Below are positions 30,723 to 54,162 of a DNA stretch of 64,000 nucleotides, one piece after another. The notes under the pieces are model-generated. The model was given only the letters and a program-made list of their open reading frames with translations. It ran no database searches and was not told where the DNA came from. The stretch is taken from the IMG/VR virus record IMGVR_UViG_3300028027_000061; one strand, given 5' to 3'. Position 1 is the stretch's first letter; every line of letters starts with the position of its first letter. The DNA comes from a virus. Position numbers and translations under genes: made by a program.

Positions 30723-30759
30723 TATTGACTTATCCCTGTAAATGTAGTATAGTCAGTTA

Positions 30760-31886: not shown

Positions 31887-31899
31887 CTACATAACATAT

Positions 31900-33751: not shown

Positions 33752-33819
33752 ATTACTAAAGGTCTTCACAATTGATTTTAATTTTTCTTCTGACAACAAA
33801 AACAAAAAGGAAGAGAAAA

Positions 33820-34269: not shown

Positions 34270-34278
34270 GGCAGAGTT

Positions 34279-35103: not shown

Positions 35104-35863
35104 GTTTTTATTAGTTGGTGCTGCTCTTTGTTATGGAACATCTGTGATTGCACAAACTGTACTGCCAACAGCACCAACTCCTCCAGCAATTGTAACAACT
35201 TCGCCAAATGAAACAGAGGCAAATACTGTTGCAACTACAAATAAGGTATATATCGATCAAGAAGGGGGCAACGTAGATGTTAACATCGTTCAAACTGGCA
35301 CTGCTAACGTTATCGGTTCTTCTATTGATCCTATTTACCTACGTGGTGATAACCAAAGCGTTATCGCAATACAAACAGGCAATGGAAACCAACTTTATAT
35401 GGGTGTCGTATCCGACACAGGAGCACAAGGAATCGCCGATGTAACAATTCGTCAAATTGGCGATTTAAACACTGCTACTATTCGTTGTGGGACAGAAGTA
35501 ACTGACTCCTCATGTAATCAACTCGACATGAATGCCAAGTTCACTGGTAATAACAACTCGTTTGTTTTCCGTGGTTCGGGTGCTAATATCCGTAACTCTA
35601 TGGATTTCAACGGTAACAATAACACAATCAACATGGATGCACTATCACCAAATGCGTCACAAACTATTCTGGTGACAGGAAACTACAATGACTTTGATGT
35701 TACACAAACTGGTACTGGTGGAACATTCGGTCACTCGCTTTATGTTAATCTAACAGGTTCATTAAACACTATAACAACACAACAGTATGGTGTTTCTGAG
35801 ACTGTGATCAATATTAATAGTGTGGGATCAAATGGCACGTTTAATATCAAAACTGGTCACTAA
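35090..35863 (+). CDS. secreted curlin-repeat (CsgA/CsgB-like) amyloid subunit candidate
   Basis: Signal peptide. Imperfect ~22-aa repeats of the form x-Q-x-G-x-G/N-N-x-(A/V)-x-I, e.g. IDQEGGNVDVNIVQTGTANVI, IAIQTGNGNQLYM, FNGNNNTINM. N/Q/G/T-rich. Confidence 0.5.
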   Translation: MKLSKFLLVGAALCYGTSVIAQTVLPTAPTPPAIVTTSPNETEANTVATTNKVYIDQEGGNVDVNIVQTGTANVIGSSIDPIYLRGDNQSVIAIQTGNGNQLYMGVVSDTGAQGIADVTIRQIGDLNTATIRCGTEVTDSSCNQLDMNAKFTGNNNSFVFRGSGANIRNSMDFNGNNNTINMDALSPNASQTILVTGNYNDFDVTQTGTGGTFGHSLYVNLTGSLNTITTQQYGVSETVININSVGSNGTFNIKTGH

Positions 35864-40457: not shown

Positions 40458-40620
40458 GTAGGAATGTATTTGGATTCTTAAAATCAAAATACACAGTATC
40501 TTCTGTCGGTTCTTCCTTTAGTGAATAGAGTTCGCTCTCAACTCGACCGAAGTGTTGATCGAGTTCCTGATCGTGAATTGATGTAGACATTAAAAACTTC
40601 TCCCAATTGTATGTCGGCAA
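40420..40620 (-). CDS. hypothetical small protein (doubtful)
   Basis: ORF overlaps the cyclase 3' end by 37 nt. Confidence 0.2.
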   Translation of the reverse strand: MPTYNWEKFLMSTSIHDQELDQHFGRVESELYSLKEEPTEDTVYFDFKNPNTFLLTWTLHDIFRRS

Positions 40621-40805
40621 AATTGCCGAAATAGTTCCTCAAAATCGCCTCTCTTGTAGACCCATGCATCATAAAGACTCTGTGCGACAGGAATATCGCT
40701 ACTTGACTTACTAACGTAGTAACCTCGATCTGTGAGTTCTTCGATCAGATCCTGATCATCAAAGTCATCCATATAAACTTCGACTTCTGTAGTAATGCTA
40801 ACCAT
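40590..40805 (-). CDS. hypothetical acidic protein
   Basis: 71-aa ORF on the minus strand. Confidence 0.35.
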   Translation of the reverse strand: MVSITTEVEVYMDDFDDQDLIEELTDRGYYVSKSSSDIPVAQSLYDAWVYKRGDFEELFRQFCRHTIGRSF

Positions 40806-41011
40806 TATGCTGCAATCCTTTTCTTATATTCAAGACGACCTTCAAGGTATTCCTCGAAAGATTTATAAGTGGGAACACCGTTCGCTTCGAGTTCGAAGTT
40901 TATTTGAGCGAACTCTTCAAGTTCGTATCCCCAACCATTCCACGGAATCCCGAGGAGTTCCAACAATTCTTCTTCACGAGAAATTATTTCAACAGTCATC
41001 ATATTCTCCAT
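40805..41011 (-). CDS. hypothetical acidic protein (start MENMMTVEI...)
   Basis: The minus-strand promoter gggcttgactttt ... tatagt lies directly upstream (41015-41055). The track's longer 149-aa version would run through that promoter, so it is rejected. Confidence 0.4.
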   Translation of the reverse strand: MENMMTVEIISREEELLELLGIPWNGWGYELEEFAQINFELEANGVPTYKSFEEYLEGRLEYKKRIAA

Positions 41012-41014
41012 CAC

Positions 41015-41055
41015 AATATATTCACTATACCCTAGTTTATGGTAAAAGTCAAGCC
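41015..41055 (-). promoter_or_regulatory. minus-strand early promoter (GGGCTTGACT-N-TATAGT)
   Basis: The reverse complement reads ttagggcttgacttttaccataaactagggtatagtgaat. Confidence 0.5.
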
Positions 41056-41060
41056 CTAAA

Positions 41061-41339
41061 TTACATTCGGTAATATTTTTGTCGATAATATAGGGCGGAC
41101 TCAAGATGAAATTCGTCGTGGCGTTCCCAGAAAGACATTTTCCGTTCAGCGATTTCAATTTCTTTTCCGGCTTGAATTTTCTCTTTAGGATCAGGCGAAT
41201 TCCCAAAAATGTGACGCAGAACAAAATGGTTATAGGAATGATTCGCCCAAGCACTATTAGGGTTCATTTTACGAATCAGGAACGGATCAAAATCCTTTTT
41301 GTTCTTGGCATTACCAGACGTTTCATAAAAAATAGACAT
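41061..41339 (-). CDS. hypothetical protein
   Basis: Minus-strand ORF with RBS ggagg. Preceded by a minus-strand promoter. Confidence 0.4.
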   Translation of the reverse strand: MSIFYETSGNAKNKKDFDPFLIRKMNPNSAWANHSYNHFVLRHIFGNSPDPKEKIQAGKEIEIAERKMSFWERHDEFHLESALYYRQKYYRM

Positions 41340-41354
41340 TATTTTTCCTCCAAT

Positions 41355-41394
41355 CGTGAATGTTCATTCTACTCCATTTTAATCAAATTGTCAA
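41355..41394 (-). promoter_or_regulatory. minus-strand early promoter GGGGCTTGACA-N17-TAGAAT
   Basis: Reverse complement ggggcttgacaatttgattaaaatggagtagaatg. Back-to-back with the plus-strand promoter at 41400-41437. Confidence 0.5.
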
Positions 41395-41399
41395 GCCCC

Positions 41400-41437
41400 T
41401 ATTTTTAGCTTGACATTTTCCATTAGATAAGGTATAA
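41400..41437 (+). promoter_or_regulatory. plus-strand early promoter TTGACA-N17-TATAAG (divergent pair)
   Basis: agcttgacattttccattagataaggtataagagt. Confidence 0.45.
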
Positions 41438-41468
41438 GAGTATGTTGAGTTAGAAAAAGGATTTTGTT

Positions 41469-41870
41469 ATGACTATGCACCTGATGTCTCATGCGTATAC
41501 CACCACTAATACGAAGAAGCGCAAGACTTCTAATAAGGGTGTGACTGCCAAGTATGCACAGGACTGGGTGGATTACAACAAGCAGATGAAGCGGATTGGT
41601 TGTAAGACCAAAACGTTCGACGAGTATGTCCAATATCGTCAAGGCAATTACAAACCCAAGTTGCGTGGCACACCTCTCCCTGACTACCAAGTCAGCGACC
41701 ATCGTCAGAAGTATCCTTCTGGTGACGGTATTGGCGTAACCTTCGCTCGCAAAGAGAATACATATACAGGTACGCTGATCAAAGGAATCGCCACCATGCA
41801 TAAATCTAATGCAGTTCCCATTATAAATGATGAGCAAGCAATTGAAGTAGCAAGGATGCGACGAGGATGA
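41469..41870 (+). CDS. basic hypothetical protein (first gene of the radical-SAM operon)
   Basis: 133 aa. K/R/T-rich N-terminus. Confidence 0.4.
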   Translation: MTMHLMSHAYTTTNTKKRKTSNKGVTAKYAQDWVDYNKQMKRIGCKTKTFDEYVQYRQGNYKPKLRGTPLPDYQVSDHRQKYPSGDGIGVTFARKENTYTGTLIKGIATMHKSNAVPIINDEQAIEVARMRRG

Positions 41871-43186
41871 ATGTACGGGAAACATTAGATTCCGTTGGTA
41901 AGGGATTTTGTCCACAGAAATGGAGATGGCTTGGTCTCTCTTTACATACAGGACAATCTCATAGTTGTTATCATCCTCCATTTTTAACAGTTCCACTCGA
42001 TGAGATTAAATTAGATCCGTCTGCTCTACATAACAATTCTTCTGCAAAACAAGATCGAAAGAAAATGCTCGAGGGCGGAAGACCTGACGGGTGCACATTT
42101 TGTTGGAACATCGAGGATATCGGAGGAAAAAGCGATCGTATTTTACGAAACTATCCGTCAAAAAATAGTATGCTCGATTACATGTCCGAAACAGAAGTTC
42201 TACGCAATACTCCATGGGATTCTAATGTAAATCCATACATGGTAGAAGTTAGTTTTTCTAACTCCTGTAATTTTAAGTGTGGTTACTGTTGTCCGTCGGT
42301 CTCTTCTCTGTGGGAAGATGAAGTAAACCAACATGGTAATTATGATTTACAGTACGACCAATATGGGATAAACGGTAAGATATATTCTGAGAAAGAATAC
42401 AATCCATATGTTGAAGCATTCTGGAAATGGTGGCCTGATTTAAAAAATGATTTGAGGATTTTTCGAATTACTGGCGGTGAACCTCTGATGACAACAAACA
42501 CATTCAAACTATTAGATATGCTGAAGGAAGACGGTAATCCTGAATTATCGCTCCAAATAAACACAAATCTGGGAGTGAGTAATCGCAAAGTTAAAGATTT
42601 CTGTGGGCGAGTGCAGGAATTGGTTGAAATAAACCATATTAAAAATTTTAGACTATTCACCAGTCTTGAGTGCACAGATAAGCAAGCAGAATATATTCGT
42701 CGTGGTCTAAACTATGAATTGTTCTTGGAAAATGTTAACACTGTTCTAGAAACGGTGCCGACTGCATATCTAAGTTTCATGTCAACATATAACGTTCTTA
42801 CGGTTCCCTACTTCAAAGATTTTTTGCAGTTAATTGTAGAACTTCGCAAAAAGTGGGGTGATCGGATTCTTATGGATATTCCGCACCTTAAAGAACCACC
42901 TCATTGGACAATGAATATTCTTCCAAAATCATGGGGTGTGCACATAGATAATGACGTTGAATTTATGCTCCTGGATGGAGGATTTCGAGATGTTGAGATT
43001 GCTAAAATGAAACGGGTGCGTGATTATTTTTATAATGACACACATAACATAACAGAAGAATATAGATTGAATGCTAGAAAAGATTTTGCCAAGTTCTTTC
43101 CGGAATATGACCGTAGAAGCAACAGTAATTTGGCAGAAACGTTTCCCGAATTTATAGAATTTTTAGAATGGTGTAAGGAATTATAA
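41867..43186 (+). CDS. radical SAM enzyme, paralog 1 (N-terminal Cys motif read as SPASM-like)
   Basis: CxxxCxxC SNSCNFKCGYCCP. GGEP motif FRITGGEPLM. N-terminal FCPQKW ... SCYHP ... GCTFCW Cys motif. Confidence 0.6.
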   Translation: MNVRETLDSVGKGFCPQKWRWLGLSLHTGQSHSCYHPPFLTVPLDEIKLDPSALHNNSSAKQDRKKMLEGGRPDGCTFCWNIEDIGGKSDRILRNYPSKNSMLDYMSETEVLRNTPWDSNVNPYMVEVSFSNSCNFKCGYCCPSVSSLWEDEVNQHGNYDLQYDQYGINGKIYSEKEYNPYVEAFWKWWPDLKNDLRIFRITGGEPLMTTNTFKLLDMLKEDGNPELSLQINTNLGVSNRKVKDFCGRVQELVEINHIKNFRLFTSLECTDKQAEYIRRGLNYELFLENVNTVLETVPTAYLSFMSTYNVLTVPYFKDFLQLIVELRKKWGDRILMDIPHLKEPPHWTMNILPKSWGVHIDNDVEFMLLDGGFRDVEIAKMKRVRDYFYNDTHNITEEYRLNARKDFAKFFPEYDRRSNSNLAETFPEFIEFLEWCKEL

Positions 43187-43189
43187 GAC

Positions 43190-43774
43190 ATGGTTAATTT
43201 TGATGTTGTAATGTTATGGATGCAATACATCCGTAATAATCCAGAGAATGCATATCGTTTCTCGGAAAACTTTTGGCCGAGTCAGATCGAAAGTAAGAAA
43301 TGGTTGCTTGAACACGTAACTCCAATGGATCGATCTATCGTAATTTTCGGTGGATGGTATGGAGTTCTTGCACAGTTTATTGCACATAAATTTCCAGATG
43401 CCCGAATTCTAACCACAGATTTAGATTCTAGTTGTAGGCATGTATTCGCTGCTATCGACGAATGTTATCACGATATTGTCTTCCGTCAACATGACATGAA
43501 AAATGGTATGCCAATCAACGTACACCCCGATCTGGTGATCAATACCAGCAGCGAGCATGTTACGCAAGAAGTTTACGATGCTTGGTGGGACTCTATCCCT
43601 AGCACGACTAAATATATCGTCCAAGGAAATAATCTAGAAAATCCTGAGCATGTTCGTCTTGCTAATAGTCTAGAGGAATTCTTAAAAATCAACAACATTG
43701 AAGATCCGCAATATGCAGGTATGTTGAAGTGTGGGCATTTCTATAGATACATGGCAGTGGGTTATAAAAAATGA
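43190..43774 (+). CDS. small class I SAM-dependent methyltransferase-like
   Basis: Rossmann motif VIFGGWYGVLAQ. Acidic TTDLD. Later VINTSSEH. Confidence 0.4.
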   Translation: MVNFDVVMLWMQYIRNNPENAYRFSENFWPSQIESKKWLLEHVTPMDRSIVIFGGWYGVLAQFIAHKFPDARILTTDLDSSCRHVFAAIDECYHDIVFRQHDMKNGMPINVHPDLVINTSSEHVTQEVYDAWWDSIPSTTKYIVQGNNLENPEHVRLANSLEEFLKINNIEDPQYAGMLKCGHFYRYMAVGYKK

Positions 43775-45195
43775 GTGATAGTGCGCACGAAGAGCATAAT
43801 CTAGACGTCCATTCAGTAGATTCATACTGGAATTTTCTCAAAGAAAAACGAGAAGTAATCAACGCAGTTAGTCCATCTTTTTGTGCAGCAAAATGGAAAC
43901 AATCAACCATTCTTTTGTATAGCGGTGAGACACATAGTTGCCACCATCCCTCGCGACACAAGATTACTCTAGAAGATATTAAAGATAATCCACGTGGTAT
44001 TCACAATACTGCTGTTAAAAAGGCAGCACGTATTGACATGCTTAATGGCGTACAAACCAAAGAATGCGATTATTGTTGGAAGATTGAGAATCTAAACAAA
44101 GATTGGATGAGTGATCGGATATACAAATCCACATATTCGTGGGCGCTACCGCACATTGATGAAATTGTCAAATCTGGCGATGGTGCGAATATCGATCCGT
44201 CATATCTGGAAGTTGCATTCGAATCTACTTGCAATTTTAAATGCGTATATTGTAGTCCAGAAAGTTCTTCTAGATGGCAAGAAGAAATCGAAACTCATGG
44301 TCCGATCGAACTAGAAGATTTCAAATTACACGATCTTGAATGGTTGAAGGAAGTTGGAAAACTTCCAATTCATCGCAAAGAACAAAATCCATATATTGAT
44401 GCTTTCTGGGAGTGGTGGCCTGACCTCTATCCCAATTTACATACGTTTAGAATAACTGGTGGTGAACCCTTGCTCAGTAAACATACTTGGCGAGTTCTTG
44501 ATTATATCGCGGAGAACCCAAATCCTAATTTGACACTCGCGATTAATACTAATCTCAATGTTCCTGATAAATTAGTCGAGAAATTGGTGGAATACATCAA
44601 TAGAATCTCTTGCAATATTAAACTGTTTGACGTATACACATCATTAGAGAGCACTGGTAAACATGCTGAGTATTCTAGATTTGGTATGCAATTTGATGAG
44701 TTTAAGAAGAACTGTAAGTATGTCTTAGATAATACGCCGAATACAACACGGTTGCATTACATGACAACCATAAATTTAACAAGCGCACCAACTCTTCTGG
44801 AATATTTGGAATATATCAGAGAAATGCGATTGAAATATTACAGTAAGATACATGAATTTAGAGTAAGAACTCATCTGTCATATCTACGGTGGCCGAGAAT
44901 GTTATGCTTAACCTTACTTTCAGAAGAAGATAAAAAACGATTTGGCGATTCTTGGATAGAATATGTTGACAAACATAAATTAACTTCTAGAAAATCAATC
45001 GAGGAAACGTTTTACTTAGAAGAAGTTGATCAAGTAAAGCGATTAGTTGACTACATGAGATCGACAAAAGAATCGCAGTCTTTATATAAAGATTTTAGAA
45101 ACTATACTCGCAGTTTGGATAAACGCAGGAAAACATCTTTCGTAGACACCTTCCCAGAACTTGCATATTTGATGGATGATGACTATTATGGATGA
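43771..45195 (+). CDS. radical SAM enzyme, paralog 2
   Basis: STCNFKCVYCSP. FRITGGEPLL. N-terminal FCAAKW ... SCHHP ... ECDYCW. Confidence 0.6.
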   Translation: MSDSAHEEHNLDVHSVDSYWNFLKEKREVINAVSPSFCAAKWKQSTILLYSGETHSCHHPSRHKITLEDIKDNPRGIHNTAVKKAARIDMLNGVQTKECDYCWKIENLNKDWMSDRIYKSTYSWALPHIDEIVKSGDGANIDPSYLEVAFESTCNFKCVYCSPESSSRWQEEIETHGPIELEDFKLHDLEWLKEVGKLPIHRKEQNPYIDAFWEWWPDLYPNLHTFRITGGEPLLSKHTWRVLDYIAENPNPNLTLAINTNLNVPDKLVEKLVEYINRISCNIKLFDVYTSLESTGKHAEYSRFGMQFDEFKKNCKYVLDNTPNTTRLHYMTTINLTSAPTLLEYLEYIREMRLKYYSKIHEFRVRTHLSYLRWPRMLCLTLLSEEDKKRFGDSWIEYVDKHKLTSRKSIEETFYLEEVDQVKRLVDYMRSTKESQSLYKDFRNYTRSLDKRRKTSFVDTFPELAYLMDDDYYG

Positions 45196-46513
45196 CGGAT
45201 TACTTCAATTCAGAAACAGTATACTAAATTCTAAATCTGCATCGTTTTGCGGCGCAAAATGGGGCAATAGTACACTGTGGTTAAACAGTGGAGAAACCAG
45301 CAGCTGCCATCTTCCTCCTGTTCATAAAATAGATCCAGAGCAAATTTTATCAGATCCAGCAAAACTGCATAATACTGATCATAAAAGTAAGATGCGACAA
45401 CTTATGAAAGATGGGCATAAACCTTCTGAGTGCGATTACTGCTGGAAGATCGAGAGCATGGGACCCGATTATATTTCAGATCGTGTTTTTAAGTCGTTGC
45501 AGTTTACACCAGAAGAAATGCAATCTTGGTTTGATAAACCAGCAGATGCTCGTATTATCCCGCCTACATTAGAAGTTATGTTTGATAGAACCTGTAATTT
45601 TGCATGCAGTTATTGTAATGCAAATTTTAGCACAACTTGGGAACGAGATATAAAGAAGCACGGACATTATAATCTTGAAACTGCAGGTGGTGGGGCGTTC
45701 AAGCATGATGGTACTACAAATAATTGTCACGAGAAAACAGAAAATCCATATATCAAAGCATTTTGGGAATGGTGGCCAGAACTTAGTAAAGAACTTCGCA
45801 CACTAAGAGTTACTGGTGGTGAACCGCTGATGAGCACAGATGTTTGGAAATTAATAGATCTGTTTGCAGAAGAGAAATACAAATTCGAATTAGGAATCAA
45901 TAGCAACCTTGGTGCAAAAAAATCCATCATAGATAGACTAATAGAGAGATCGCACGATATTAATAATCTTACTATCTTCACAAGTATGGAAACTACGGGT
46001 GCGCAAGCAGAGTATATTCGTGATGGATTAGATTATAACTCTTGGTGCGATAATGTTGAGCGGATTCTTGGAGAATCTAATGTGAAACGTATCGTTGTTA
46101 TGATGACGATTAATGCATTGTGTCTCTTCAACGTAACTGAAATTATGGATCAAATTATGCTATGGAAACGTCGTTATGGAAATCGTATAAGCATGAGTAT
46201 AAACTTTCTTCGGTTTCCTGCGTTTCAGAGTCTAACTGTTTTGCCAGATTCTATTAGGGAAACTGCTTACCAGAATCTTAGTGATTGGATCCAGAAAAAT
46301 AGAGACAATCCCGATCTTATGTTTACCGAGAAGAGTGATGTTGAACGATTAATTTCGTATGTAAATATCATTGAAACACCGCATTCTTACGATACTGATC
46401 TTGAGAAGAATCGCAAAGATTTTAAAAAGTTTTATTCTCAATATAGTTATCGTAGGAATAAACCAATAGATGTATTTCCACAGGAGTTTTTACAATGGTT
46501 CAATACTCTTTAA
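45176..46513 (+). CDS. radical SAM enzyme, paralog 3
   Basis: RTCNFACSYCNA. LRVTGGEPLM. N-terminal FCGAKW ... SCHLP ... ECDYCW. Confidence 0.6.
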   Translation: MMTIMDDGLLQFRNSILNSKSASFCGAKWGNSTLWLNSGETSSCHLPPVHKIDPEQILSDPAKLHNTDHKSKMRQLMKDGHKPSECDYCWKIESMGPDYISDRVFKSLQFTPEEMQSWFDKPADARIIPPTLEVMFDRTCNFACSYCNANFSTTWERDIKKHGHYNLETAGGGAFKHDGTTNNCHEKTENPYIKAFWEWWPELSKELRTLRVTGGEPLMSTDVWKLIDLFAEEKYKFELGINSNLGAKKSIIDRLIERSHDINNLTIFTSMETTGAQAEYIRDGLDYNSWCDNVERILGESNVKRIVVMMTINALCLFNVTEIMDQIMLWKRRYGNRISMSINFLRFPAFQSLTVLPDSIRETAYQNLSDWIQKNRDNPDLMFTEKSDVERLISYVNIIETPHSYDTDLEKNRKDFKKFYSQYSYRRNKPIDVFPQEFLQWFNTL

Positions 46514-47688
46514 GAAATGACGGGTATTGTGCCCTGCCATTCAATCACATGAATCTTCATCCGAACGGAAACGTTTCTGTTTGTTGTGTTTCTAAGATGG
46601 ATGGACCTGACAGTGGATTTGCTAAGGATCAGGATGGAAACTTATTCAACCTAAAAACGCATACGCTTGATGAAATTTTTAATAGTTATTCTACGAATAA
46701 AATTCGTTCAGAAATGTTAACACAACAGTATCCCTCTGCGTGTGAAGGTTGTTACAAGATTGAGCAATATGGCGGAAAGTCGCGACGAATTACTGAAAAT
46801 AATCGATGGGAAAATATTGAGAAACCTAAATTAGAATTTCTAGATATTAGATTAAGCAACCTTTGTAATTTAAAGTGTTTGATGTGTTATCCTGATTCTA
46901 GTTCTTCTCTAGTCTCAGACTACAAAGAATGGTCAGACCAACTTCCGTTTATGACAAAAAACAGTGCCGATTATGAGTTATTCCAGTGGTTCGACGAAAG
47001 TATTATTGATCAACTATATGCACATAAAGACACTCTGAAGTATCTCTATATTAATGGTGGTGAACCTTTTATTATGCCGATGCATTGGAAATTACTCGAA
47101 AAACTAATAGAATGGGGTGTTGCTAGTAACATTCATATTAGTTACAACACCAATTGCACAACTTACGATGAATCGTTTAGTGATTATTGGAAACACTTTA
47201 AGGTTGTTACTGTTGGTTGTAGTATGGATGCAGTAGGAGATAGAAATAAGTTTATCCGATACCCAAATGATTGGGAAAAGGCAAATACGAATATTCGAAA
47301 GTTGTTAGAAAATCCCCATATCGCTGCCTTAAACATTACATGTAGCATCCAATGGTTGAATGCACCTTATTTACCTGAGTTTTATGAATGGGCAGTTCCA
47401 CTCACAAAACTCAAACCCCACACAACTATCAATCAGAACTTTATTGTGTTTCCTGAGTATCTCTCGCTAAACTGTGCATCGAAACAATTCAAAGAAGATT
47501 TGAAAATGCTATATGAAGAATCACCACATTCAAACTGGATTCTTACTGAAACAATGAAATCATATCTTCGCACAGAGTCACAGGACAATGATCTTTGGAT
47601 CAAGGGCAATAAATACTTAGACGTTGTTCAACTGAGTAGAAAAATGGGACCGTGGAAAGACATATTTAACTATGACTATCAATACTGA
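46495..47688 (+). CDS. radical SAM enzyme, paralog 4
   Basis: SNLCNLKCLMCYP. YINGGEPF. N-terminal CALPFNHMNLHPNGNVSVCC ... CEGCYKIE. Confidence 0.6.
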   Translation: MVQYSLRNDGYCALPFNHMNLHPNGNVSVCCVSKMDGPDSGFAKDQDGNLFNLKTHTLDEIFNSYSTNKIRSEMLTQQYPSACEGCYKIEQYGGKSRRITENNRWENIEKPKLEFLDIRLSNLCNLKCLMCYPDSSSSLVSDYKEWSDQLPFMTKNSADYELFQWFDESIIDQLYAHKDTLKYLYINGGEPFIMPMHWKLLEKLIEWGVASNIHISYNTNCTTYDESFSDYWKHFKVVTVGCSMDAVGDRNKFIRYPNDWEKANTNIRKLLENPHIAALNITCSIQWLNAPYLPEFYEWAVPLTKLKPHTTINQNFIVFPEYLSLNCASKQFKEDLKMLYEESPHSNWILTETMKSYLRTESQDNDLWIKGNKYLDVVQLSRKMGPWKDIFNYDYQY

Positions 47689-48961
47689 AAATAACAAAAG
47701 TATTTGTAAATATCCATGGGATCATAGTTACATAGGATCGCAGTACGAGCGGAAACTTTGCTGTATATCAGATGACATTGTCTCACAGGAAAAGACGGAA
47801 ACCAAAGATTTCTGGAATTCTGATGTGATGAAAGATGTTCGAAAAAAGATGCTCGCTGGAGAAAAGGTTGATGCCTGTTCAGTTTGTTATAAAAACGAAG
47901 AACAGAACATTGAATCTTTACGTCAACAGAGTTGGAAGAGTCCCTGTAGCGAAGAAGAAATGATCTCTGAGGTCATAAGCAAGACTAATGAAGATGGTTC
48001 TACGGTAGAACTTCCCACATATTTTGACTATCGAACCATTCACTGTAATTTGCAGTGTATAAGTTGTGGATCGCTATACAGTTCGAAACATGCCTCATTA
48101 TATTCCGAAATGTGGAACAGTCGCCCTAAAATGTTTCCTTCTGGTAAAGAATTTGTCATTGATTATGAGTTCGAAGATTCGATGGCGGAGGAAATTATTG
48201 AATGTCTTGATACGCGAAGGTTGACAAAAATTTATTGGGCTGGTGGTGAACCAATGATGTCAGGCGTGCATTGGAAAGTAGTCGACAAATTGTTGGAGAT
48301 TCAATCAACAGATCCACAATATATATTCAGTATCTTTGTTCATTACAATACCAATCTAACACGCCTTCACTGGAAGGGAAAGATTATTCCTGAGTTATTG
48401 GAGTTTTACCAACCAAGCATACAGGCAAGTTTAGATGGGACGCATGAAACTTTTGAATTTTGTCGAGATGGTGCATCCTGGGAAACAGTTTCTACTAACT
48501 GGAAAGAATATCATTCTAGACTGAACAAGAGAAATCAATTTGGTCTTTCTAGTATTATGTCTGCGCCAGTTCTTATGGATATAGACAGATGGTTTGAATT
48601 TTATGAACCGTATGACCCAGAACTGCATTCGCACAAATTATTTAATCATATTAATCGAAAAACTCAACAAGGATTCCTAGACATTCGGTTATACCCACAA
48701 CAAATTTTTGACCGAATAATTGATCATGCCATTAAGCGGTTTGAAGAGTGTTCTTTGAGAGGAAAAGAAAGAACGATTGCAATATTAAAATCGTATAGAT
48801 TGGACAAAAGCAATAACCCGATTTATTCGGATCTGGAAATGTTAAAACTGATGAAGAAAAACTGGCAATACAGAGAAAAGTTTCTTCTAGGAAAACACAC
48901 CTTTGAGAGTCTAACTGCAATTATTGACCCAGAGGTAAGAGATTGGTATTTGTCAATATGA
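47672..48961 (+). CDS. radical SAM enzyme, paralog 5
   Basis: IHCNLQCISCGS. YWAGGEPMM. N-terminal ICKYPW ... LCCIS ... CSVCYK. Confidence 0.6.
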   Translation: MTINTENNKSICKYPWDHSYIGSQYERKLCCISDDIVSQEKTETKDFWNSDVMKDVRKKMLAGEKVDACSVCYKNEEQNIESLRQQSWKSPCSEEEMISEVISKTNEDGSTVELPTYFDYRTIHCNLQCISCGSLYSSKHASLYSEMWNSRPKMFPSGKEFVIDYEFEDSMAEEIIECLDTRRLTKIYWAGGEPMMSGVHWKVVDKLLEIQSTDPQYIFSIFVHYNTNLTRLHWKGKIIPELLEFYQPSIQASLDGTHETFEFCRDGASWETVSTNWKEYHSRLNKRNQFGLSSIMSAPVLMDIDRWFEFYEPYDPELHSHKLFNHINRKTQQGFLDIRLYPQQIFDRIIDHAIKRFEECSLRGKERTIAILKSYRLDKSNNPIYSDLEMLKLMKKNWQYREKFLLGKHTFESLTAIIDPEVRDWYLSI

Positions 48962-50103
48962 GCGAAACTAAAATTTATTGTCCATCTATGTGGAAATCAG
49001 TGCATGTTGATACCGATGGTTACCTTACTCCATGTTGCCTTTTCATCCACAGAGAAGATAAAAAAAGTAAACTTGTAGATATACAACATGCTGAGAGTGT
49101 CCTACAAGAAGAATTCCAGGAATATCGTGATCAACTATCGAACGGTGTTTGGCCGAGCGGGTGCAACCAGTGTAAATTCGCAGAAGACGAAGGGCGAGAT
49201 AGCAAACGTCAACAAGATATGTGGATGTTACACAATGGAACGATGAAAACGCCACCCGAAGACGTTTCTCTTGAATATTTACAGTTAAAAACTGGAAGAT
49301 TATGTAATCTCCGTTGCACGATTTGCACTCCTGCATGCTCAACTGCAATTTCAACCGAACTTTTACGCATAGGAAAATTGGATCGAGCAACATATGATCG
49401 TCTCAATGAAGAGATTGCTTGGTCTTATGATTTAGAACAGTATAAAAAACTTAATCCTGGTGATGATGGTTACTTTAGAATTGATATTGCTGGTGGCGAA
49501 CCTCTACTAAATAAGACACACTTTGAGTGGTTGGATCAATTATCTAATCCAGAAAAAACAATATTACAATACAATACGAATGGAACACAAAGACCAACCA
49601 GGAAAGAGATTGATATCTGGAAAAAATTCAAAGGTATAGTTTTGTCTTTCAGTATAGATTCTTATGGCGATAAGTTCGAGAAACTTAGAGTTGGTGCTAA
49701 GTGGGATCAAGTTCTGGATAATTTAAAATACTGCCAAGAAGAAATTATTACAAAGGAATTTGATTTACAAACATCAAATGTTTCTATCGTTATGACAGTA
49801 AGTAAAATGAACGTTAGAGACCCAATTACCCTTTATAAGATATTGACTCAATATGTGCAGTTTACTAATTCAGAACCATTAAATTTCAACTATTTGTATT
49901 ATCCCGATCACATGGCATGCCACAATATGTCTCGCCAGGAACTTGAAGAAGTAATTGCATTGTATGATGCTGAAATACCTTCGTTACCCGAAAATAGTAA
50001 GATGCGAAAACAATGTTTGGATTTACGAAACAGTCTATTTACCTTCTTAGATGGAAAGGAAGTAGAAAACCCAAGACCAATGCCGAAAGATCATAGAGAA
50101 TGA
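48943..50103 (+). CDS. radical SAM enzyme, paralog 6
   Basis: GRLCNLRCTICTP. IDIAGGEPLL. N-terminal YCPSMW ... PCCLF ... CNQCKF. Confidence 0.6.
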   Translation: MVFVNMSETKIYCPSMWKSVHVDTDGYLTPCCLFIHREDKKSKLVDIQHAESVLQEEFQEYRDQLSNGVWPSGCNQCKFAEDEGRDSKRQQDMWMLHNGTMKTPPEDVSLEYLQLKTGRLCNLRCTICTPACSTAISTELLRIGKLDRATYDRLNEEIAWSYDLEQYKKLNPGDDGYFRIDIAGGEPLLNKTHFEWLDQLSNPEKTILQYNTNGTQRPTRKEIDIWKKFKGIVLSFSIDSYGDKFEKLRVGAKWDQVLDNLKYCQEEIITKEFDLQTSNVSIVMTVSKMNVRDPITLYKILTQYVQFTNSEPLNFNYLYYPDHMACHNMSRQELEEVIALYDAEIPSLPENSKMRKQCLDLRNSLFTFLDGKEVENPRPMPKDHRE

Positions 50104-50930
50104 AACTCGAAGGAAAAACACGACTAATTTCATTTGGATGCTCATTTACTTCTGGTGCTGAATTAATAGACCATGAAATACTTGGTATTAGTTTTGAAGA
50201 CTGCAATAAAATGAAGCGTCAGTGGACTGCAGATAAAAAACAACTGGTTGAGTTTGAAAACTATGTTGTTCGTGCGGGTAAGACTAACTGGAAAGAGTAT
50301 ATTAATAATTGTTCGAAAAGAAGTTATGCTGCCAAATTAGCAACTAAACTCGGTTTAGAACATGTTAATTGCGCTATACCTGGATCTGCGGTGGATCACA
50401 TGGTTTTAGATTTATTTCGAGAACACTATACTGAGAAATTGAATTCGACAACAGACCTACTATTATTAGGAATGACGATGCCACATAGATACCTGTGTTT
50501 TACAGAACGTGGCATCCCTGTTTCTAGAGTCTTGAGTGAGCGTGATTTTATAACGAGCGACGAGCATTATAATGATTATAAAGTTATGCAAACTTATATG
50601 TGTGCGCTGCAAAATTTTAAGAATTTTTGCATTGTAAATAACTATGATTTTTATATACAACCAATTCTGCCAAAGGAACTTCTTTTTTATAATGCTCCGG
50701 AATCAAAGCATGGTAATATTTTTCCAGATATGCATTTTAACTGGCAATATTTACCGACGTTCAAAAAAACATTTCAAGAGTTACTAGATTGTAGTATTGA
50801 TGGAAACATATCTTTGTTTAGTAGGTCTGAAGAATACGGGATGGTGTGTGGATTTAAACACCCACCTGAACAAGCCCATGTGTTTTTTGCGGAGGCATTA
50901 TATGATAAAATTATTAATACAAAAAATTAG
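50100..50930 (+). CDS. SGNH-hydrolase-like protein (non-canonical block I, GCSFT)
   Basis: ISFGCSFTSG near the N-terminus. HP..QAH near the C-terminus. Confidence 0.35.
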   Translation: MKLEGKTRLISFGCSFTSGAELIDHEILGISFEDCNKMKRQWTADKKQLVEFENYVVRAGKTNWKEYINNCSKRSYAAKLATKLGLEHVNCAIPGSAVDHMVLDLFREHYTEKLNSTTDLLLLGMTMPHRYLCFTERGIPVSRVLSERDFITSDEHYNDYKVMQTYMCALQNFKNFCIVNNYDFYIQPILPKELLFYNAPESKHGNIFPDMHFNWQYLPTFKKTFQELLDCSIDGNISLFSRSEEYGMVCGFKHPPEQAHVFFAEALYDKIINTKN

Positions 50931-50998
50931 AACTTATTTTGTTAAACGTTCGCACATCCGCCGAATGAAGAAAATAAGAAAACTAGATCCCTTTATCT

Positions 50999-52423
50999 AT
51001 GATTGAGTGGGGGATATCTGCTGCAGCGCATGATGCTGCTCTTACTGTAGTTGATGGTGAACAAATTTTATTTGCTTCGCACGCAGAACGGTATAGTGGA
51101 ATAAAAAATGACAAACATCTAAATGCCGATCTGATCAACGCAGCGTTGAAGTTCGGTAAACCAGAGAAGATACATTGGTATGAAAAACCAAAACTTAGAG
51201 GTATGCGTAGATTTCTTTCTGGACAGGGTTTGGTTCGATTTAGCGTAAGGCAGTATCTTAAAGAATTTGGTCTTGACGTTCCTGTTGAGTTTGCTTCACA
51301 CCATGAGTCACATGCCGCTGCAGGTTTCTATACTTCTCAGTTCGAATCTGCGACTGCTCTTGTAATCGATGCGATCGGTGAATTTGACACTGTATCTATT
51401 TGGTTGTGTGATGGTGAAGGGATGATGAAGAAGTGGAGTATGGATTATCCGAAATCTCTCGGATTGTTTTATTCTGCTATAACAGACAGAGTTGGATTGA
51501 AACCAAACGAAGATGAGTATATCCTCATGGGTATGGCAGCGTATGGTAATCCCGACAAATATTATTGGGACATGCGCGAACTCTATGAGAAAGTAAATCT
51601 ACATCGTGGATGTAAGTGGTGGTTGAAAGACGAAGATCCTGATCACTACGATCTTGCCGCATCAGCGCAGAAGATTTATGAGGAAGAATTCGACAAATTA
51701 CTCGTTCGCGCAAAGATGAAAGACACTTTCCAAAATAATCTAGTATTATCAGGGGGTTGCGCACTTAATTGCTCTGCCAATCATATTGCTAAAAAATACT
51801 TTAAGAACGTTTGGATTATTCCGAATCCTGGAGATGCAGGTAGTTCCCTCGGTGCTATTGCTGCAAACAACCGCCGAAAACTAAACTGGCAGGGTCCATA
51901 TCTTGGCGAGAATATTGATACCGAATATCCTGTAGAAAATCTATTGACTTCTTTGCTTAAAGAGGGTATAGTTGGAGTTGCTAGTGGAAGAGCGGAGTTC
52001 GGTCCGAGAGCATTCGGTAACCGAAGTCTCCTTGCCGATCCAACTAGAACAGACATTAAGGACAGAGTAAATGCAATCAAACGCAGACAAAAGTTTAGAC
52101 CATTCGCACCAGTCATCCTTGAGCAACATGCAGCAGAGTATTTTGACATGCCAGTTGAAGTATCCCCTTACATGCAGTTTACTGCAAGATGTAAATTTCC
52201 TACAAAGTTCCCTGCTATCGTTCACGTTGATGGCACATCTCGCGTCCAAACTGTAAACAAGCAACAGCATCCAGGATTGTTTGAATTACTAACTCGATGG
52301 TATGAAGAAACAGGTTGTCCGATGTTACTTAATACTAGTCTGAACATTAAAGGGTTTCCGATGGTAAATGATGAAAAGGATGCTGCCATGTTCCAAGGTA
52401 TGTATAATGTGGACGTATTTTAA
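50999..52423 (+). CDS. NodU/CmcH-family carbamoyltransferase
   Basis: Motifs HHESHAAAGFY and GGCALNCSAN. About 474 aa, typical of O-carbamoyltransferases. Confidence 0.65.
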   Translation: MIEWGISAAAHDAALTVVDGEQILFASHAERYSGIKNDKHLNADLINAALKFGKPEKIHWYEKPKLRGMRRFLSGQGLVRFSVRQYLKEFGLDVPVEFASHHESHAAAGFYTSQFESATALVIDAIGEFDTVSIWLCDGEGMMKKWSMDYPKSLGLFYSAITDRVGLKPNEDEYILMGMAAYGNPDKYYWDMRELYEKVNLHRGCKWWLKDEDPDHYDLAASAQKIYEEEFDKLLVRAKMKDTFQNNLVLSGGCALNCSANHIAKKYFKNVWIIPNPGDAGSSLGAIAANNRRKLNWQGPYLGENIDTEYPVENLLTSLLKEGIVGVASGRAEFGPRAFGNRSLLADPTRTDIKDRVNAIKRRQKFRPFAPVILEQHAAEYFDMPVEVSPYMQFTARCKFPTKFPAIVHVDGTSRVQTVNKQQHPGLFELLTRWYEETGCPMLLNTSLNIKGFPMVNDEKDAAMFQGMYNVDVF

Positions 52424-52434
52424 TAAATAAACAT

Positions 52435-52722
52435 ATGGCGGATATACTGAAATTCCCTGATAAGTTTATTAACGGAAAGCGGTTATACCGAATACCGTTA
52501 TATTCGGACATGGACATTGATGTTGTTTTATTTTGTGTTAATGCATTTGGCGAAACTGATAACCGTGTAATTATCGACGATTTAATTAAAATGGATCCTG
52601 TTGATGTCATAAAATGTATTGACTTTTCACTTGAATCAGAGTATATTTCTAATACTACGAAAGCGCATATCGAATGCATTCGTAAGTCAATCGAGGAAAT
52701 TCCCTTTAAACTTGAGAACTAA
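52435..52722 (+). CDS. hypothetical protein
   Basis: 95 aa. Confidence 0.35.
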   Translation: MADILKFPDKFINGKRLYRIPLYSDMDIDVVLFCVNAFGETDNRVIIDDLIKMDPVDVIKCIDFSLESEYISNTTKAHIECIRKSIEEIPFKLEN

Positions 52723-52728
52723 TATATT

Positions 52729-53271
52729 ATGAATATTTTTTACCTTGACCGTGACGTCAAAACTTGTGCTACATATCACAACGATAAGCATGTTGTTAAA
52801 ATGATTTTAGAGTATGCCCAATTACTGTCAACAGCACATCGCATGCTCGACGGCAAAGAATATATTGATGCCTCTTCTGGGCGTCGAATCAAGCGTTGGC
52901 GACTTGAAGATGATAAGATGGAAAATATGCTTTACAAAGCATCACATATTAATCACCCCAGTGCTATTTGGGCGCGACAGTCCAACAATAATTACAATTG
53001 GTTGATGTGTTTATTTCAGGAACTGTTACAAGAATATACGTATCGCTACGGTAAGATTCATGCAACCGATCGTCTAGTATACTGGTTACGTCAACCACCT
53101 GCTAATATTCCTATTGGATATCTGACACAACCTACACCTGCTATGCCAGACGAATACAAGGTGCAGGGTGACTCTCTACAGTCATATCGTAACTATTATA
53201 TCGGCGCAAAAAAAACTATGGCAAAGTGGAAAAATCGTCCTATTCCAGAGTGGTGGAGGGATACAGTTTAA
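52729..53271 (+). CDS. pyrimidine-dimer DNA glycosylase (DenV/Pyr_excise)-like protein
   Basis: N-terminal CATYHNDKHVVKMILEYAQLLS resembles the LCDKHLLGEHRELH region of that family. Tentative. Confidence 0.3.
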   Translation: MNIFYLDRDVKTCATYHNDKHVVKMILEYAQLLSTAHRMLDGKEYIDASSGRRIKRWRLEDDKMENMLYKASHINHPSAIWARQSNNNYNWLMCLFQELLQEYTYRYGKIHATDRLVYWLRQPPANIPIGYLTQPTPAMPDEYKVQGDSLQSYRNYYIGAKKTMAKWKNRPIPEWWRDTV

Positions 53272-53344
53272 TAAATACCTGTATGAGATTAAAAAGAACA
53301 ATCCCCATTCCAATTTCAGATACCGAGATCGTTCGGTAACAATA

Positions 53345-53377
53345 GGCGACTCCACCTTATGTGGGGTCGCCTTTTTT
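53345..53377 (+). terminator. rho-independent terminator
   Basis: Strong hairpin ggcgactccac-cttat-gtggggtcgcc followed by T6. Confidence 0.65.
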
Positions 53378-53409
53378 GTATTCACTCTAGACAAGATTAA
53401 GGACTGTTT

Positions 53410-54162
53410 ATGACAAGAAGAAAAAACAATCTCCAAGTTGTATCGAATTCTGAACCAAAAGTAACAATCGAAAAGAGTAAACTGTGCAAAGTTAAATATG
53501 AAGATCTAAAACACATTCAACCAAAAACTCAGAATCAACGACTCTTCTTCGATCTTTACAATCAACAGTCCAATGCAATTCTACTACACGGTGTAGCAGG
53601 AACAGGTAAAACATTTATTTCCATGTATAAGGCACTTGAAGAAGTTCTGGACCCAACAACAGATTATGAACGTGTTGTTGTTGTGCGTTCAGCAGTACCA
53701 TCAAGAGATATCGGACACCTTCCAGGTGACGAGAAGGAAAAAACAGAGGTCTATACTTTACCATATGTTGAGATATGTGATGATTTACTCAATCACATTC
53801 AACCATTCCTGCGGTTACAGGAACAAAAGACCGTTCATTTCCTAATCACCTCGTTCGTGCGTGGTATCACACTTGATAATTCAGTGATCATTGTTGATGA
53901 ATGTCAGAATATGACTGACATGGAACTGAACTCTATTATGACACGTATCGGTAAGAACTCCAAGATTATCTTCTGTGGAGACTTCCGACAAACAGACCTA
54001 TATAAAAAGAACGATATGTCTGGTTTGCAAAAGTTTATAACAATTGCTGACATGATGCCTTCGTTTAAAACAGTTGAGTTCTCTGTTAACGACATCGTCC
54101 GTTCTAAACTGGTCAAGGAGTATATCATTGCTCGTTTGGAATACGAAGAAAAATATAATTAG
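53410..54162 (+). CDS. phoH: PhoH-family ATPase
   Basis: Walker A LLHGVAGTGKTF. Walker B IIVDECQNMT. Confidence 0.7.
   Translation: MTRRKNNLQVVSNSEPKVTIEKSKLCKVKYEDLKHIQPKTQNQRLFFDLYNQQSNAILLHGVAGTGKTFISMYKALEEVLDPTTDYERVVVVRSAVPSRDIGHLPGDEKEKTEVYTLPYVEICDDLLNHIQPFLRLQEQKTVHFLITSFVRGITLDNSVIIVDECQNMTDMELNSIMTRIGKNSKIIFCGDFRQTDLYKKNDMSGLQKFITIADMMPSFKTVEFSVNDIVRSKLVKEYIIARLEYEEKYN

Follow-up and report, generated by a model that had tools for sequence, protein, structure and literature searches.

The window, that is the whole 64,000-nucleotide stretch of viral DNA analysed, derives from a T4-like phage. It carries six consecutive plus-strand radical SAM genes (R1 to R6) between 41867 and 50103, and all coordinates given for them in the first-pass annotation were confirmed (Table 1). 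From the b133 gene through the u276 gene, neighbours overlap by 4-20 nt (4 nt for b133/R1); the six radical SAM genes are translationally coupled, and b133 is the first gene of the coupled run. By start context R6 begins at TTG 48943 or ATG 48958, and the true start may be 48958; its ortholog in locus L143 has 381 aa. The two small genes that follow CT, with gaps of 11 and 6 nt, belong to the same transcription unit, were syntenic in close relatives only, and are probably outside the pathway. The hairpin downstream of them was the sole strong one within 40300-53500 and likely marks the 3' end of the transcription unit; the overall count of terminator-like sites was no higher than in shuffles. 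The operon is surrounded by DNA-metabolism genes (PhoH, PD-(D/E)XK nuclease, gp59 and gp32).

Table 1. Features of the radical SAM operon and its 3' end, with positions in the window.
Feature	Position	Strand	Description
b133	41469-41870	+	basic 133-aa protein, pI 9.9, PHROG 27048
R1	41867-43186	+	439 aa, N-terminal-twitch radical SAM, group A; NF033640 292 bits; Radical_SAM 128-313
MT	43190-43774	+	small class I SAM-methyltransferase-like protein; profile match and motifs
R2	43771-45195	+	474 aa, N-terminal-twitch radical SAM; NF033640 314 bits
R3	45176-46513	+	445 aa, N-terminal-twitch radical SAM, group A; NF033640 276 bits
R4	46495-47688	+	397 aa, N-terminal-twitch radical SAM, group B; NF033640 309 bits; SPASM 39 bits, residues 12-87
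R5	47672-48961	+	429 aa, N-terminal-twitch radical SAM, group B; NF033640 231 bits
R6	48943-50103	+	386 aa, N-terminal-twitch radical SAM, group B; NF033640 223 bits; SPASM 24.8 bits, residues 13-78
u276	50100-50930	+	276 aa, SGNH/GDSL-fold hydrolase or acyltransferase; AF2 and Foldseek
CT	50999-52423	+	474 aa, NodU/CmcH/TobZ-family O-carbamoyltransferase; Carbam_trans_N and Carbam_trans_C
Two small genes after CT	52435-53271	+	95-aa acidic protein (u95); 180-aa protein, PHROG 624, Pyr_excise-like
Intrinsic-terminator-like hairpin	53344-53372	+	12-bp stem, 8 GC, T-run

Exactly one CxxxCxxC and one GGEP motif were found in each of the six paralogs, as had been claimed, and each is a radical SAM enzyme of family NF033640 with a SAM-cleaving [4Fe-4S] site. 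Pairwise identity was 19-33%, and the proposed sub-groups 1-3 and 4-6 were recovered (about 33% identity for R1-R3, 22-26% for R4-R6). All six matched NF033640 (N_Twi_rSAM) end to end at about 222-314 bits (curated cutoff 170 bits), with the same domain order. The profile searches suggested earlier held in part: the Pfam Radical_SAM gathering cutoff of 29.5 bits was passed by R1, R2, R4 and R6, with R3 and R5 at 22.6-23.0 bits, Pfam SPASM matched at the N-terminus of R4 and R6, and TIGR04085 scores fell below cutoff. Because dN/dS against orthologs in related contigs was 0.02-0.11 for all six paralogs (R1 0.08, R2 0.023), the array reflects neither chance nor decay; with CxxxCxxC intact throughout, the earlier view that it is not pseudogenised was upheld. 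The AF2 model of R2 was confident (pLDDT 94) and shows a (beta-alpha)6-type fold in which a beta-hairpin separates Cys1 from Cys2.

Four N-terminal cysteines are invariant in all six paralogs (C15, C34, C76 and C79 in R1 numbering), and the spacing from the first to the second is 19 in 79 NF033640 members. The domain order is an N-terminal four-Cys twitch domain, the CxxxCxxC core and a helical C-terminal region. When a profile of the N-terminal region was compared with the PDB, the sole significant match was the twitch domain of BtrN (E 0.003, 4/4 Cys aligned), the same C...G-x4-C...CxxC pattern being aligned in both, which bears out the reading of this motif as a genuine SPASM-related (twitch) auxiliary-cluster domain placed before the core. 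BtrN is the founding twitch radical SAM enzyme, the 2-deoxy-scyllo-inosamine dehydrogenase of butirosin biosynthesis; its four cysteines bind an auxiliary [4Fe-4S] cluster, and it oxidises a secondary alcohol of a sugar-like aminocyclitol. By analogy, the four invariant cysteines of each twitch domain should hold one auxiliary Fe-S cluster. The SPASM domains of anSME, AlbA/SkfB, PqqE and SuiB are C-terminal and have seven or eight cysteines and two clusters, whereas the window domain is N-terminal with only four conserved cysteines. The architecture is not the novelty it was taken for, being that of a curated NCBIfam subfamily, NF033640, with at least 5,684 clusters at 50% identity. This family is a curated sequence model, and no reaction, structure or paper was found for it in a literature and structure search.

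Nor is the tandem expansion a rarity among viruses, as had been supposed: the paralogs belong to old subfamilies, each conserved in its own right, and arrays of 6-7 are common in IMG/VR contigs. Arrays of 6-8 paralogs were present at 20 of 62 distant viral loci and also in Bdellovibrionota genomes, where the family lies on long chromosomal contigs. R1 to R5 each represent an old subfamily whose orthologs occur at a further 13-27 loci, viral and cellular (R1 clade 13, mostly cellular; R3 clade 23; R4 clade 25; R5 clade 27). R2 orthologs with 35-65% identity were found at 62 distant loci of viruses and at some 40 loci in genomes; R3 usually comes directly after R2 in other arrays, so that the R2-R3 order recurs. 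Each of the six belongs to a different subfamily of ancient divergence, and they have been inherited as a set, with R2 the core and most conserved radical SAM enzyme of the module. Among cultured phages, an NF033640 member was found only in Ralstonia phage RsoM2USA, and no arrays of the family were found.

Among the companion genes, membership of the pathway is uncertain for b133. It was syntenic in close relatives and in L149; its sequence contains a single Cys and shows neither repeats nor leader/core features. The suggestion that it serves as substrate or scaffold is disfavoured, since cultured phages without the radical SAM family have proteins homologous to its C-terminal part. The class I methyltransferase-like assignment of MT stands, on a profile match to the putative methyltransferase 3dtn (E 4e-5) and the motifs GGWYG, D77 and INTSxEH. 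MT was found in 17 distant loci immediately upstream of an R2/R1-like gene, and MT and R2 form a conserved pair. For u276, the proposed SGNH fold was borne out by an AF2 model (pLDDT 85.5), for which the top 50 Foldseek PDB matches were with few exceptions esterases of the SGNH/GDSL type, TesA and acetyl-xylan esterases included; carbohydrate esterases are among its matches. Block I (GCSFTxG) is invariant, and the 34 homologs were confined to this phage clade. The gene is fast-evolving (dN/dS 0.22-0.27; 42-71% amino acid identity vs. mostly 76-94% for its neighbours). CT has both Carbam_trans domains of NodU/CmcH/TobZ/NovN, and its best PDB matches, at E 1e-37 to 1e-51, were NovN (2e-51), GdmN and TobZ, in agreement with its earlier naming as an O-carbamoyltransferase of this type; at 474 aa, however, it is about 100-200 residues shorter, and its NodU equivalog score was 149 against a cutoff of 1000. 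At 19 distant loci a CT gene accompanies R2-like genes.

The operon is read here as a multistep carbohydrate-tailoring pathway, with a probability of about 0.5. Among the substrates first put forward (glycan, nucleotide or DNA, peptide), a glycan or sugar was favoured by context. In other loci, arrays are adjoined by three glycosyltransferase classes, sugar-nucleotide enzymes and polysaccharide-type ABC transporters. Viral neighbour ORFs included GT7 + Laminin_G_3 fusion glycosyltransferases (13 of 140), epimerase/dehydratase, UDP-glucose dehydrogenase and GT2; glycogenin/GT8-like pairs occurred at 39 loci, and pooled neighbours at cellular loci included GT1, ABC/ABC-2 transporters and DegT. 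In a jumbo phage, DegT and an epimerase adjoin three radical SAM genes, and in the T4-like relative L146 a 208-aa gene and an R2-like gene are flanked by IMPDH, HAD and a sugar-phosphate nucleotidyltransferase. N_Twi_rSAM is found naturally fused to domains of GT2 type (E 1e-6) or GT7 type (E 0.003) or to a ~310-aa partner family (E 7e-66), and double and triple radical SAM fusions also occur. In distant phages the module adjoins probable tail-fibre or baseplate genes.

In such a pathway, hydrogen-atom abstraction by each radical SAM enzyme would occur at its own position on the sugar, or on its own intermediate; the sugar would be nucleotide-activated or already within a glycan, and the auxiliary cluster would accept an electron or otherwise control the substrate radical. 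Outcomes may be of the BtrN/DesII/BlsE type, i.e. keto-sugar oxidation, epimerisation, deoxygenation, decarboxylation or C-C bond formation. Later modification of hydroxyl or amino groups would fall to MT, the partner of R2, to u276 with its SGNH fold, which would handle O-acyl groups, and to CT; the substrates of NovN and TobZ are sugar hydroxyls. The final acceptor could be a glycoconjugate made by the phage and carried on a virion protein, on the cell envelope or on DNA. As no glycosyltransferase was found within the operon, and only two in the window (GT2 at 3235-3987 and TAGT at 29913-30722), one of these or a host enzyme would act, or the pathway would operate at the sugar-nucleotide level.

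An unlikely alternative is DNA hypermodification: the TET/JBP dioxygenase (28576-29913) would make 5-hydroxymethyl-pyrimidines, TAGT would glycosylate them, and the operon would tailor the attached sugar or the hydroxymethyl group itself, with carbamoylation following as in 5-carbamoyloxymethylcytosine and restriction evasion as the purpose. TET and TAGT share the operon's orientation and sit 11-13 kb upstream of it, TAGT being the glycosyltransferase nearest to the operon; in a relative that lacks the curli/cyclase cargo, only ~2 kb separate the end of the TET cassette from b133-MT-R2. The surrounding DNA-metabolism genes and the diversity of phage DNA glycans (bioRxiv 2023.12.21.572611) would also fit. 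A phage carbamoyltransferase of the CT superfamily carbamoylates 5hmC in DNA (PMC8670742), but its identity to CT is only 27%. Like published phage TET/5mYOX-glycosyltransferase clusters, the window has Tet_JBP followed directly by TAGT, but the radical SAM operon is a separate unit, and the papers describing those clusters name no radical SAM or carbamoyltransferase partners (PMC8256090; bioRxiv 2023.12.21.572611). Co-occurrence gave no support to the suggested DNA hypermodification link: no TET/TAGT homologs were found within 10 kb of arrays at any distant viral or cellular locus, L150 and L151 have TET cassettes without radical SAM genes, and the family also occurs on Bdellovibrionota chromosomal contigs, with GT1 and ABC transporter genes among pooled cellular neighbours. 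In L149, GATase/GNAT/ADDT/nucleotide-kinase genes (amino-acid-type thymidine hypermodification) replace TAGT and are followed by the b133-MT-R2 operon; since the same operon stands behind both cassette types, it is improbable that one radical SAM set would act in both chemistries. The annotated window genes included no thymidylate-synthase-like partner. The TET/glycosyltransferase cassette assorts independently of the radical SAM operon.

Equally doubtful is a free small-molecule product, with the operon making or remodelling a soluble antimetabolite or signal that resembles an aminoglycoside, aminocyclitol or nucleoside, rather than a polymer-bound glycan. The nearest characterised relatives all come from antibiotic pathways (BtrN for the twitch domain, BlsE of blasticidin S for the core, NovN/GdmN/TobZ for CT), the operon has no glycosyltransferase, flippase or polymerase, and the L146 neighbours are compatible with such a product. 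Against this, fusions and tight linkage to GT2, GT7, GT8-like and ConA-like domains are what glycoconjugate assembly more typically shows, the module of distant phages lies near probable tail-fibre or baseplate genes, and no exporter or self-resistance gene lies in the operon. BlsE, DesII and AprD4, sugar-acting radical SAM enzymes of nucleoside and aminoglycoside antibiotics, were only 12-17% identical to the window enzymes and scored no better than MoaA, anSME and viperin, so the similarity is at superfamily level only; they act singly, whereas the window has a six-paralog array. RiPP-like maturation, with six SPASM/twitch-type enzymes crosslinking or epimerising a peptide such as b133 or another small ORF, is very improbable: peptide maturases are very frequent among SPASM/twitch enzymes, NCBIfam and structural comparisons showed weak similarity to SkfB, SuiB, PapB and anSME, and b133 is translationally coupled to R1, but maturase models all scored far below cutoffs, no Pfam/NCBIfam match extended beyond the twitch and radical SAM regions, so that no RRE/PqqD-like recognition domain was detected, no precursor peptide was found for the window enzymes and no peptidase or exporter in the operon, b133 has the features and homologs described above, and the recurrent partners are glycosyltransferases, carbamoyltransferase and methyltransferase, not small peptides.

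The literature search gave no paper describing this system, in line with the first-pass annotation; the arrays, their distribution across phages and Bdellovibrionota and the glycosyltransferase fusions were absent from the literature found. Gene content varies among close relatives: R1, an accessory step, is missing from L001, L002, L004, L005, L006 and L013, and MT from L007, L008, L012 and L014. The differences in R1, MT, u276 and an extra radical SAM gene among near-identical phages suggest that the product has diversified between strains. Uncultured phages and predatory bacteria commonly carry the module.

The six radical SAM paralogs encoded in tandem in the window (R1-R6) are full-length members of the N_Twi_rSAM family ('twitch domain-containing radical SAM protein', NCBIfam NF033640), a curated family that is already known but uncharacterised. 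HMM scores were 292, 314, 276, 309, 231 and 223 bits for R1 to R6, respectively (curated cutoff 170 bits), and alignments covered from about 1-360 to 1-397 of the 398 model positions. The Pfam Radical_SAM model matched R1, R2, R4 and R6 above its gathering cutoff of 29.5 bits, and R3 and R5 at 22.6-23.0 bits. Each protein carries a single CxxxCxxC and a single GGEP motif in aligned columns, as well as four invariant cysteines upstream of the radical SAM core. Pairwise identities were 19-33%, and two sub-groups were recovered (group A, R1-R3; group B, R4-R6). The six-paralog array described in the first-pass annotation was therefore borne out in each of these features.

The N-terminal cysteine region had been read as SPASM-like. 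A profile of this region alone (73 family members) was compared with all PDB sequences and returned one significant match (E = 0.003). This was to BtrN, in its C-terminal twitch domain, where the cysteines of the C...G-x4-C...CxxC pattern align. Cys1 and Cys2 are 19 residues apart in 79 members, and Cys2 and Cys3 about 40-44. The auxiliary [4Fe-4S] cluster of BtrN has four cysteine ligands at nearly the same spacing. Pfam SPASM matched the N-terminus of R4 (residues 12-87) and R6 (residues 13-78). The AlphaFold model of R2 (pLDDT 94, pTM 0.91) places a beta-hairpin between the first two of these cysteines; its core has six strands and its C-terminal region is helical. On sequence comparison, the N-terminal region is a genuine twitch domain whose position is permuted, and a predicted auxiliary-cluster domain. 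It is not a full SPASM domain: that domain (PF13186/TIGR04085) lies C-terminal to the core and has a seven-to-eight-Cys motif (CxxCxxxxxCxxxC plus flanking cysteines) for two auxiliary clusters, whereas R1-R6 have four conserved cysteines, none further after CxxC, in an N-terminal placement, and TIGR04085 scores of 13-20 bits (cutoff 27).

The refuting cases named in the first-pass annotation (zinc ribbon, QueE duplicates, pseudogenes) each came out negative. An unrelated zinc ribbon was rejected, as zinc-finger matches had E >= 1 and the BtrN twitch was the sole significant PDB match. The best QueE-model scores were 15-25 bits against cutoffs of 200-300, and PHROG QueE-like matches to the radical SAM proteins reached only E = 5e-4 to 2e-3. 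Scores for any other single known equivalog family were all far below cutoffs. The same was true of radical SAM/SPASM RiPP maturase equivalogs; no RRE/PqqD-like domain was found in R1-R6, where Pfam and NCBIfam matches were confined to the twitch and radical SAM regions. A pseudogenised array was rejected on intact motifs and on dN/dS of 0.02-0.11 across R1-R6 (lowest in R2, 0.023), which indicates strong purifying selection.

Features of the window and of the related module in a cultured phage
Feature	Coordinates	Strand	Description
Second putative tailoring cluster	3235-7907		GT2 (3235-3987), Coq4-like protein, 207-aa unknown, 533-aa B12-binding-type radical SAM, 186-aa unknown, Asp/Arg-hydroxylase-like 2OG oxygenase
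Small GDSL-type gene	20140-20616		lipase/acylhydrolase
TET block	28576-33177		TET/JBP, TAGT, DruA-like gene, PHROG-2496 gene
TET	28576-29913		TET/JBP dioxygenase (Tet_JBP), followed directly by TAGT
TAGT	29913-30722		TET-associated glycosyltransferase
Cargo block	33772-40457		curli secretion genes CsgF and CsgG, curlin-repeat-like protein, FecR-domain protein, 484-aa unknown, CHASE2-adenylate/guanylate cyclase
Antisense ORF	41391-41996	-	201 aa, overlaps b133 and start of R1
b133	41469-41870	+	basic 133-aa protein, first gene of run 41469-53271
R1	41867-43186	+	radical SAM
MT	43190-43774	+	methyltransferase-like, 194 aa
R2	43771-45195	+	radical SAM
R3	45176-46513	+	radical SAM
R4	46495-47688	+	radical SAM
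R5	47672-48961	+	radical SAM
R6	48943-50103	+	radical SAM
u276	50100-50930	+	SGNH-fold, 276 aa
CT	50999-52423	+	carbamoyltransferase
Two small genes	52435-53271	+	end of run
Hairpin	53344-53372		strong terminator-like
RsoM2USA module	L086, 208363-227694		genes RsoM2USA_346-354, all annotated hypothetical; sole cultured phage with the module

The window phage is T4-like, encoding gp59, gp32, a T4 baseplate protein and PhoH, and no near-identical relative was present among 50,697 GenBank phage records. From b133 to u276, adjacent genes share 4-20 nt or sit 3 nt apart. This spacing, together with the hairpin downstream of the two small genes, the sole strong terminator-like one in the operon region, is the reason the run was read as one transcription unit. 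A promoter scan of the operon region performed no better than on shuffled sequence. The antisense ORF is longer than b133, and naive longest-ORF calling would displace the latter; b133 is the conserved gene, with synteny and a PHROG match.

The calls of an O-carbamoyltransferase and an SGNH-like protein were upheld. CT contains both carbamoyltransferase domains, and its nearest solved relatives are NovN, GdmN and TobZ. The u276 model (pLDDT 85.5) had Foldseek top matches that were almost all SGNH/GDSL enzymes, including carbohydrate esterases (best E = 2.6e-5, TM normalized to target about 0.6), and its GCSFTxG block (block I Ser motif) was invariant in 31 homologs; no sequence-family match was found in Pfam or NCBIfam. 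The predicted fold and the block I motif place u276 in the SGNH/GDSL superfamily. MT is a candidate class I SAM-dependent methyltransferase: a profile of 13 homologs matched one putative methyltransferase (3dtn, E = 4e-5); its GGWYG, acidic D77 and INTSxEH motifs are conserved, and Pfam and NCBIfam matches were below cutoffs. A role of b133 as a dedicated substrate was rejected: the protein (pI 9.9, one Cys) is without precursor-like features, and homologs of its C-terminal part occur in cultured phages without the radical SAM family, an observation that also counted against the RiPP maturase assignment.

Gene content varied among close relatives. The b133-R2 slot in near-identical phages (L001-L019) had three configurations (b133-MT-R2, b133-R1-R2 and b133-R1-MT-R2), u276 alleles were 42-71% identical against mostly 76-94% for flanking genes, and one relative had a seventh radical SAM gene between u276 and CT (L019:9902-11110). 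Together these fit a product diversified between strains. Such variation in R1, MT, the SGNH gene and the seventh radical SAM gene is the pattern expected under arms-race selection, e.g. on virion or DNA decoration.

A profile of the six paralogs recovered at least 5,684 clusters (50% identity) at E = 1e-30 or better. R2-like genes were found in 79 IMG/VR loci, 62 of them not close relatives of the window phage; 28 of these 62 distant loci had at least 4 paralogs and 20 had at least 6 (loci not fully dereplicated), so such an expansion is not rare in viruses. In the species-representative genome collection, the great majority of R2-like genes came from Bdellovibrionota MAGs, in some cases on contigs of 0.2-2.6 Mb, and arrays there reached 8 paralogs. 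Non-viral R2-like genes (L087-L128) were concentrated in predatory Bdellovibrio, Bacteriovorax, Halobacteriovorax and Pseudobdellovibrio. Some short 'cellular' contigs with phage-like neighbour families may be mis-binned phage DNA.

In a neighbor-joining tree of 188 dereplicated members, R1, R2, R3, R4 and R5 each fell in a separate clade that also contains members from 13-27 further loci, both viral and cellular, which rejects recent duplication within the phage. In other loci, too, R2 is repeatedly followed by R3 and then by group-B paralogs. On both grounds, the array is an ancient pathway of several enzymes that has been passed on as a unit. Among cultured phages, a clear homolog was found only in the Ralstonia jumbo phage RsoM2USA (51% identity, annotated hypothetical). 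Its module is ordered as a small family-4 gene, two GT8-like genes, a 184-aa gene, a gene of a ~310-aa family, the R2-like radical SAM gene (gene 349), a short ~310-aa-family paralog and an MT-family gene.

The only window genes recurring beside arrays elsewhere were MT (17 distant loci), CT (19) and, rarely, u276. Directly upstream of the R2-like gene was a gene of either the MT family or the ~310-aa family, at a median distance of 2 bp. The ~310-aa family has the motifs SYDEP...VDGDN...NGLxYGNGG...QAWRAGFREGVKM and no PDB or Pfam match; a TAGT-like or GT8/GT2-like identity was rejected (hhalign probability <1%, only a DxD-like segment aligned). Upstream families 3 and 5 returned nothing in PDB profile searches, and the interspersed genes of a Haliscomenobacter array almost nothing in Pfam.

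Pfam enrichment was calculated for 140 ORFs neighbouring arrays in distant viral loci. The top domains were GT7-type glycosyltransferase and Laminin_G_3/ConA-like (13 each), which are fused in neighbour proteins of ~474 aa, followed by epimerase/dehydratase, UDP-glucose dehydrogenase, GT2, GNAT, Asp/Arg hydroxylases and extra radical SAM proteins. A neighbour family with two copies per locus (39 loci) matched glycogenin (GT8, E = 4e-7). Neighbours in cellular loci included GT1, ABC and ABC-2 transporters and DegT, and in a jumbo phage three paralogs adjoin DegT and an epimerase. A T4-like relative that shares the PhoH/PD-(D/E)XK synteny carries IMPDH, a 208-aa gene and an R2-like gene, together with genes for a HAD phosphatase and a sugar-phosphate nucleotidyltransferase. 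In distant phages, large proteins that weakly match tail-fibre, baseplate-wedge or virion proteins are encoded immediately upstream of the glycosyltransferase and radical SAM module.

Natural fusions were found among the best family matches (P0275-P0278, P0282, P0307, P0322, P0381; P0297, P0323, P0340, P0357, P0410, P0298). These comprised two or three N_Twi_rSAM units per chain, a radical SAM protein joined to the ~310-aa partner family (E = 7e-66), one with a C-terminal GT2-type glycosyltransferase (TarS, GalT1, PglI; E = 1e-6) and, weakly, one with an N-terminal GT7-type region (beta4GalT1; E = 0.003). The radical SAM-glycosyltransferase fusions are the strongest single argument for a role in glycan assembly. 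Three further candidate fusions were noted by eye, in which the partner domain is ConA-like (P0357), GNAT (P0410) or subtilase-like (P0298).

An alternative is that the substrate is DNA: TET and TAGT would lay a sugar on hydroxymethyl-pyrimidines, and the radical SAM, MT, SGNH and CT proteins would rebuild it, a new DNA hypermodification and, if true, the first radical-SAM-tailored DNA glycan. In its favour, of the two glycosyltransferases found in the window, TAGT and a GT2 (3235-3987), TAGT is the nearer to the operon. The remaining evidence makes the DNA reading improbable. The 10 kb to either side of arrays in distant loci contained no TET or TAGT homologs, two TET cassettes have no radical SAM genes within 10 kb, and CT is 27% identical over 441 columns to the characterised 5hmC carbamoyltransferase, i.e. 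at superfamily level (PMC8670742). Radical SAM and carbamoyl genes go unmentioned in the published studies of TET and associated glycosyltransferases (PMC8256090; bioRxiv 2023.12.21.572611). In locus L149, a TET 74% identical to that of the window is followed by GATase, GNAT, amino-acid:DNA transferase and P-loop nucleotide kinase instead of TAGT, and the DruA...b133-MT-R2 arrangement is retained about 2 kb downstream of the swapped cassette. The same operon thus accompanies a chemically different DNA modification, which speaks for independent TET and radical SAM modules; judged from gene content, the TET-operon link does not hold up on comparison of loci. A scan with the last TET-block gene as a single protein returned one locus only.

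The host-like cargo block lies between the TET block and the operon in this T4-like phage; it is present in close relatives and absent in L149, where the TET cassette adjoins the operon. No C5-cytosine methyltransferase and no ThyS-like gene were seen among annotated window genes; a dCMP-hydroxymethylase-type thymidylate synthase homolog would be the expected partner of a 5hmC carbamoyltransferase. In L149 and L150, the window's TET clade is partnered with GATase, GNAT/amidoligase, ADDT and P-loop nucleotide kinase; this suggests thymine (5hmU) as the target of the TET and an exchangeable cassette downstream of it. GDSL-type lipase/acylhydrolase and Methyltransf_24 families were also observed about 5-6 kb upstream of TET in L149 (L149:440-1675), and both occur in the window, the latter somewhere in 1-28.5 kb and not mapped to an ORF. 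The 533-aa radical SAM protein of the separate 3235-7907 cluster has CxxxCxxC at residue 200 and weakly matches an ORF inside a Legionellales-MAG array (L125:8762-10273).

The operon, which is conserved and under selection, combines six different two-cluster-type radical SAM enzymes with a methyltransferase-like protein, an SGNH-fold protein and an O-carbamoyltransferase. The first-pass annotation was confirmed as an observation and borne out only in part as an interpretation. In the most likely mechanism, a proposed sugar-tailoring pathway, the radical SAM enzymes would modify a sugar step by step through radical chemistry, the sugar being nucleotide-activated or part of a glycan. The chemistry would be BtrN/DesII/BlsE-like: an H atom would be abstracted, and the twitch cluster would deal with the radical or electron. 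Methylation, acyl handling and carbamoylation would come afterwards. No description of the pathway was found in the literature searched. The proposed pathway would be a form of radical-SAM-assisted sugar tailoring in which phages use a permuted twitch architecture and arrays that combine six to eight subfamilies.

About 9 kb of phage genome is devoted to six oxygen-sensitive Fe-S enzymes, and the product must matter, since strong purifying selection maintains this array in many uncultured phages and predatory bacteria. RsoM2USA (genes 346-353) provides a cultured entry point. The family comprises more than 5,000 clusters (50% identity), yet is without a characterised reaction; if sugar tailoring is true, the six distinct subfamilies would point to several radical reactions on carbohydrates that are new, and to an extensively modified sugar.
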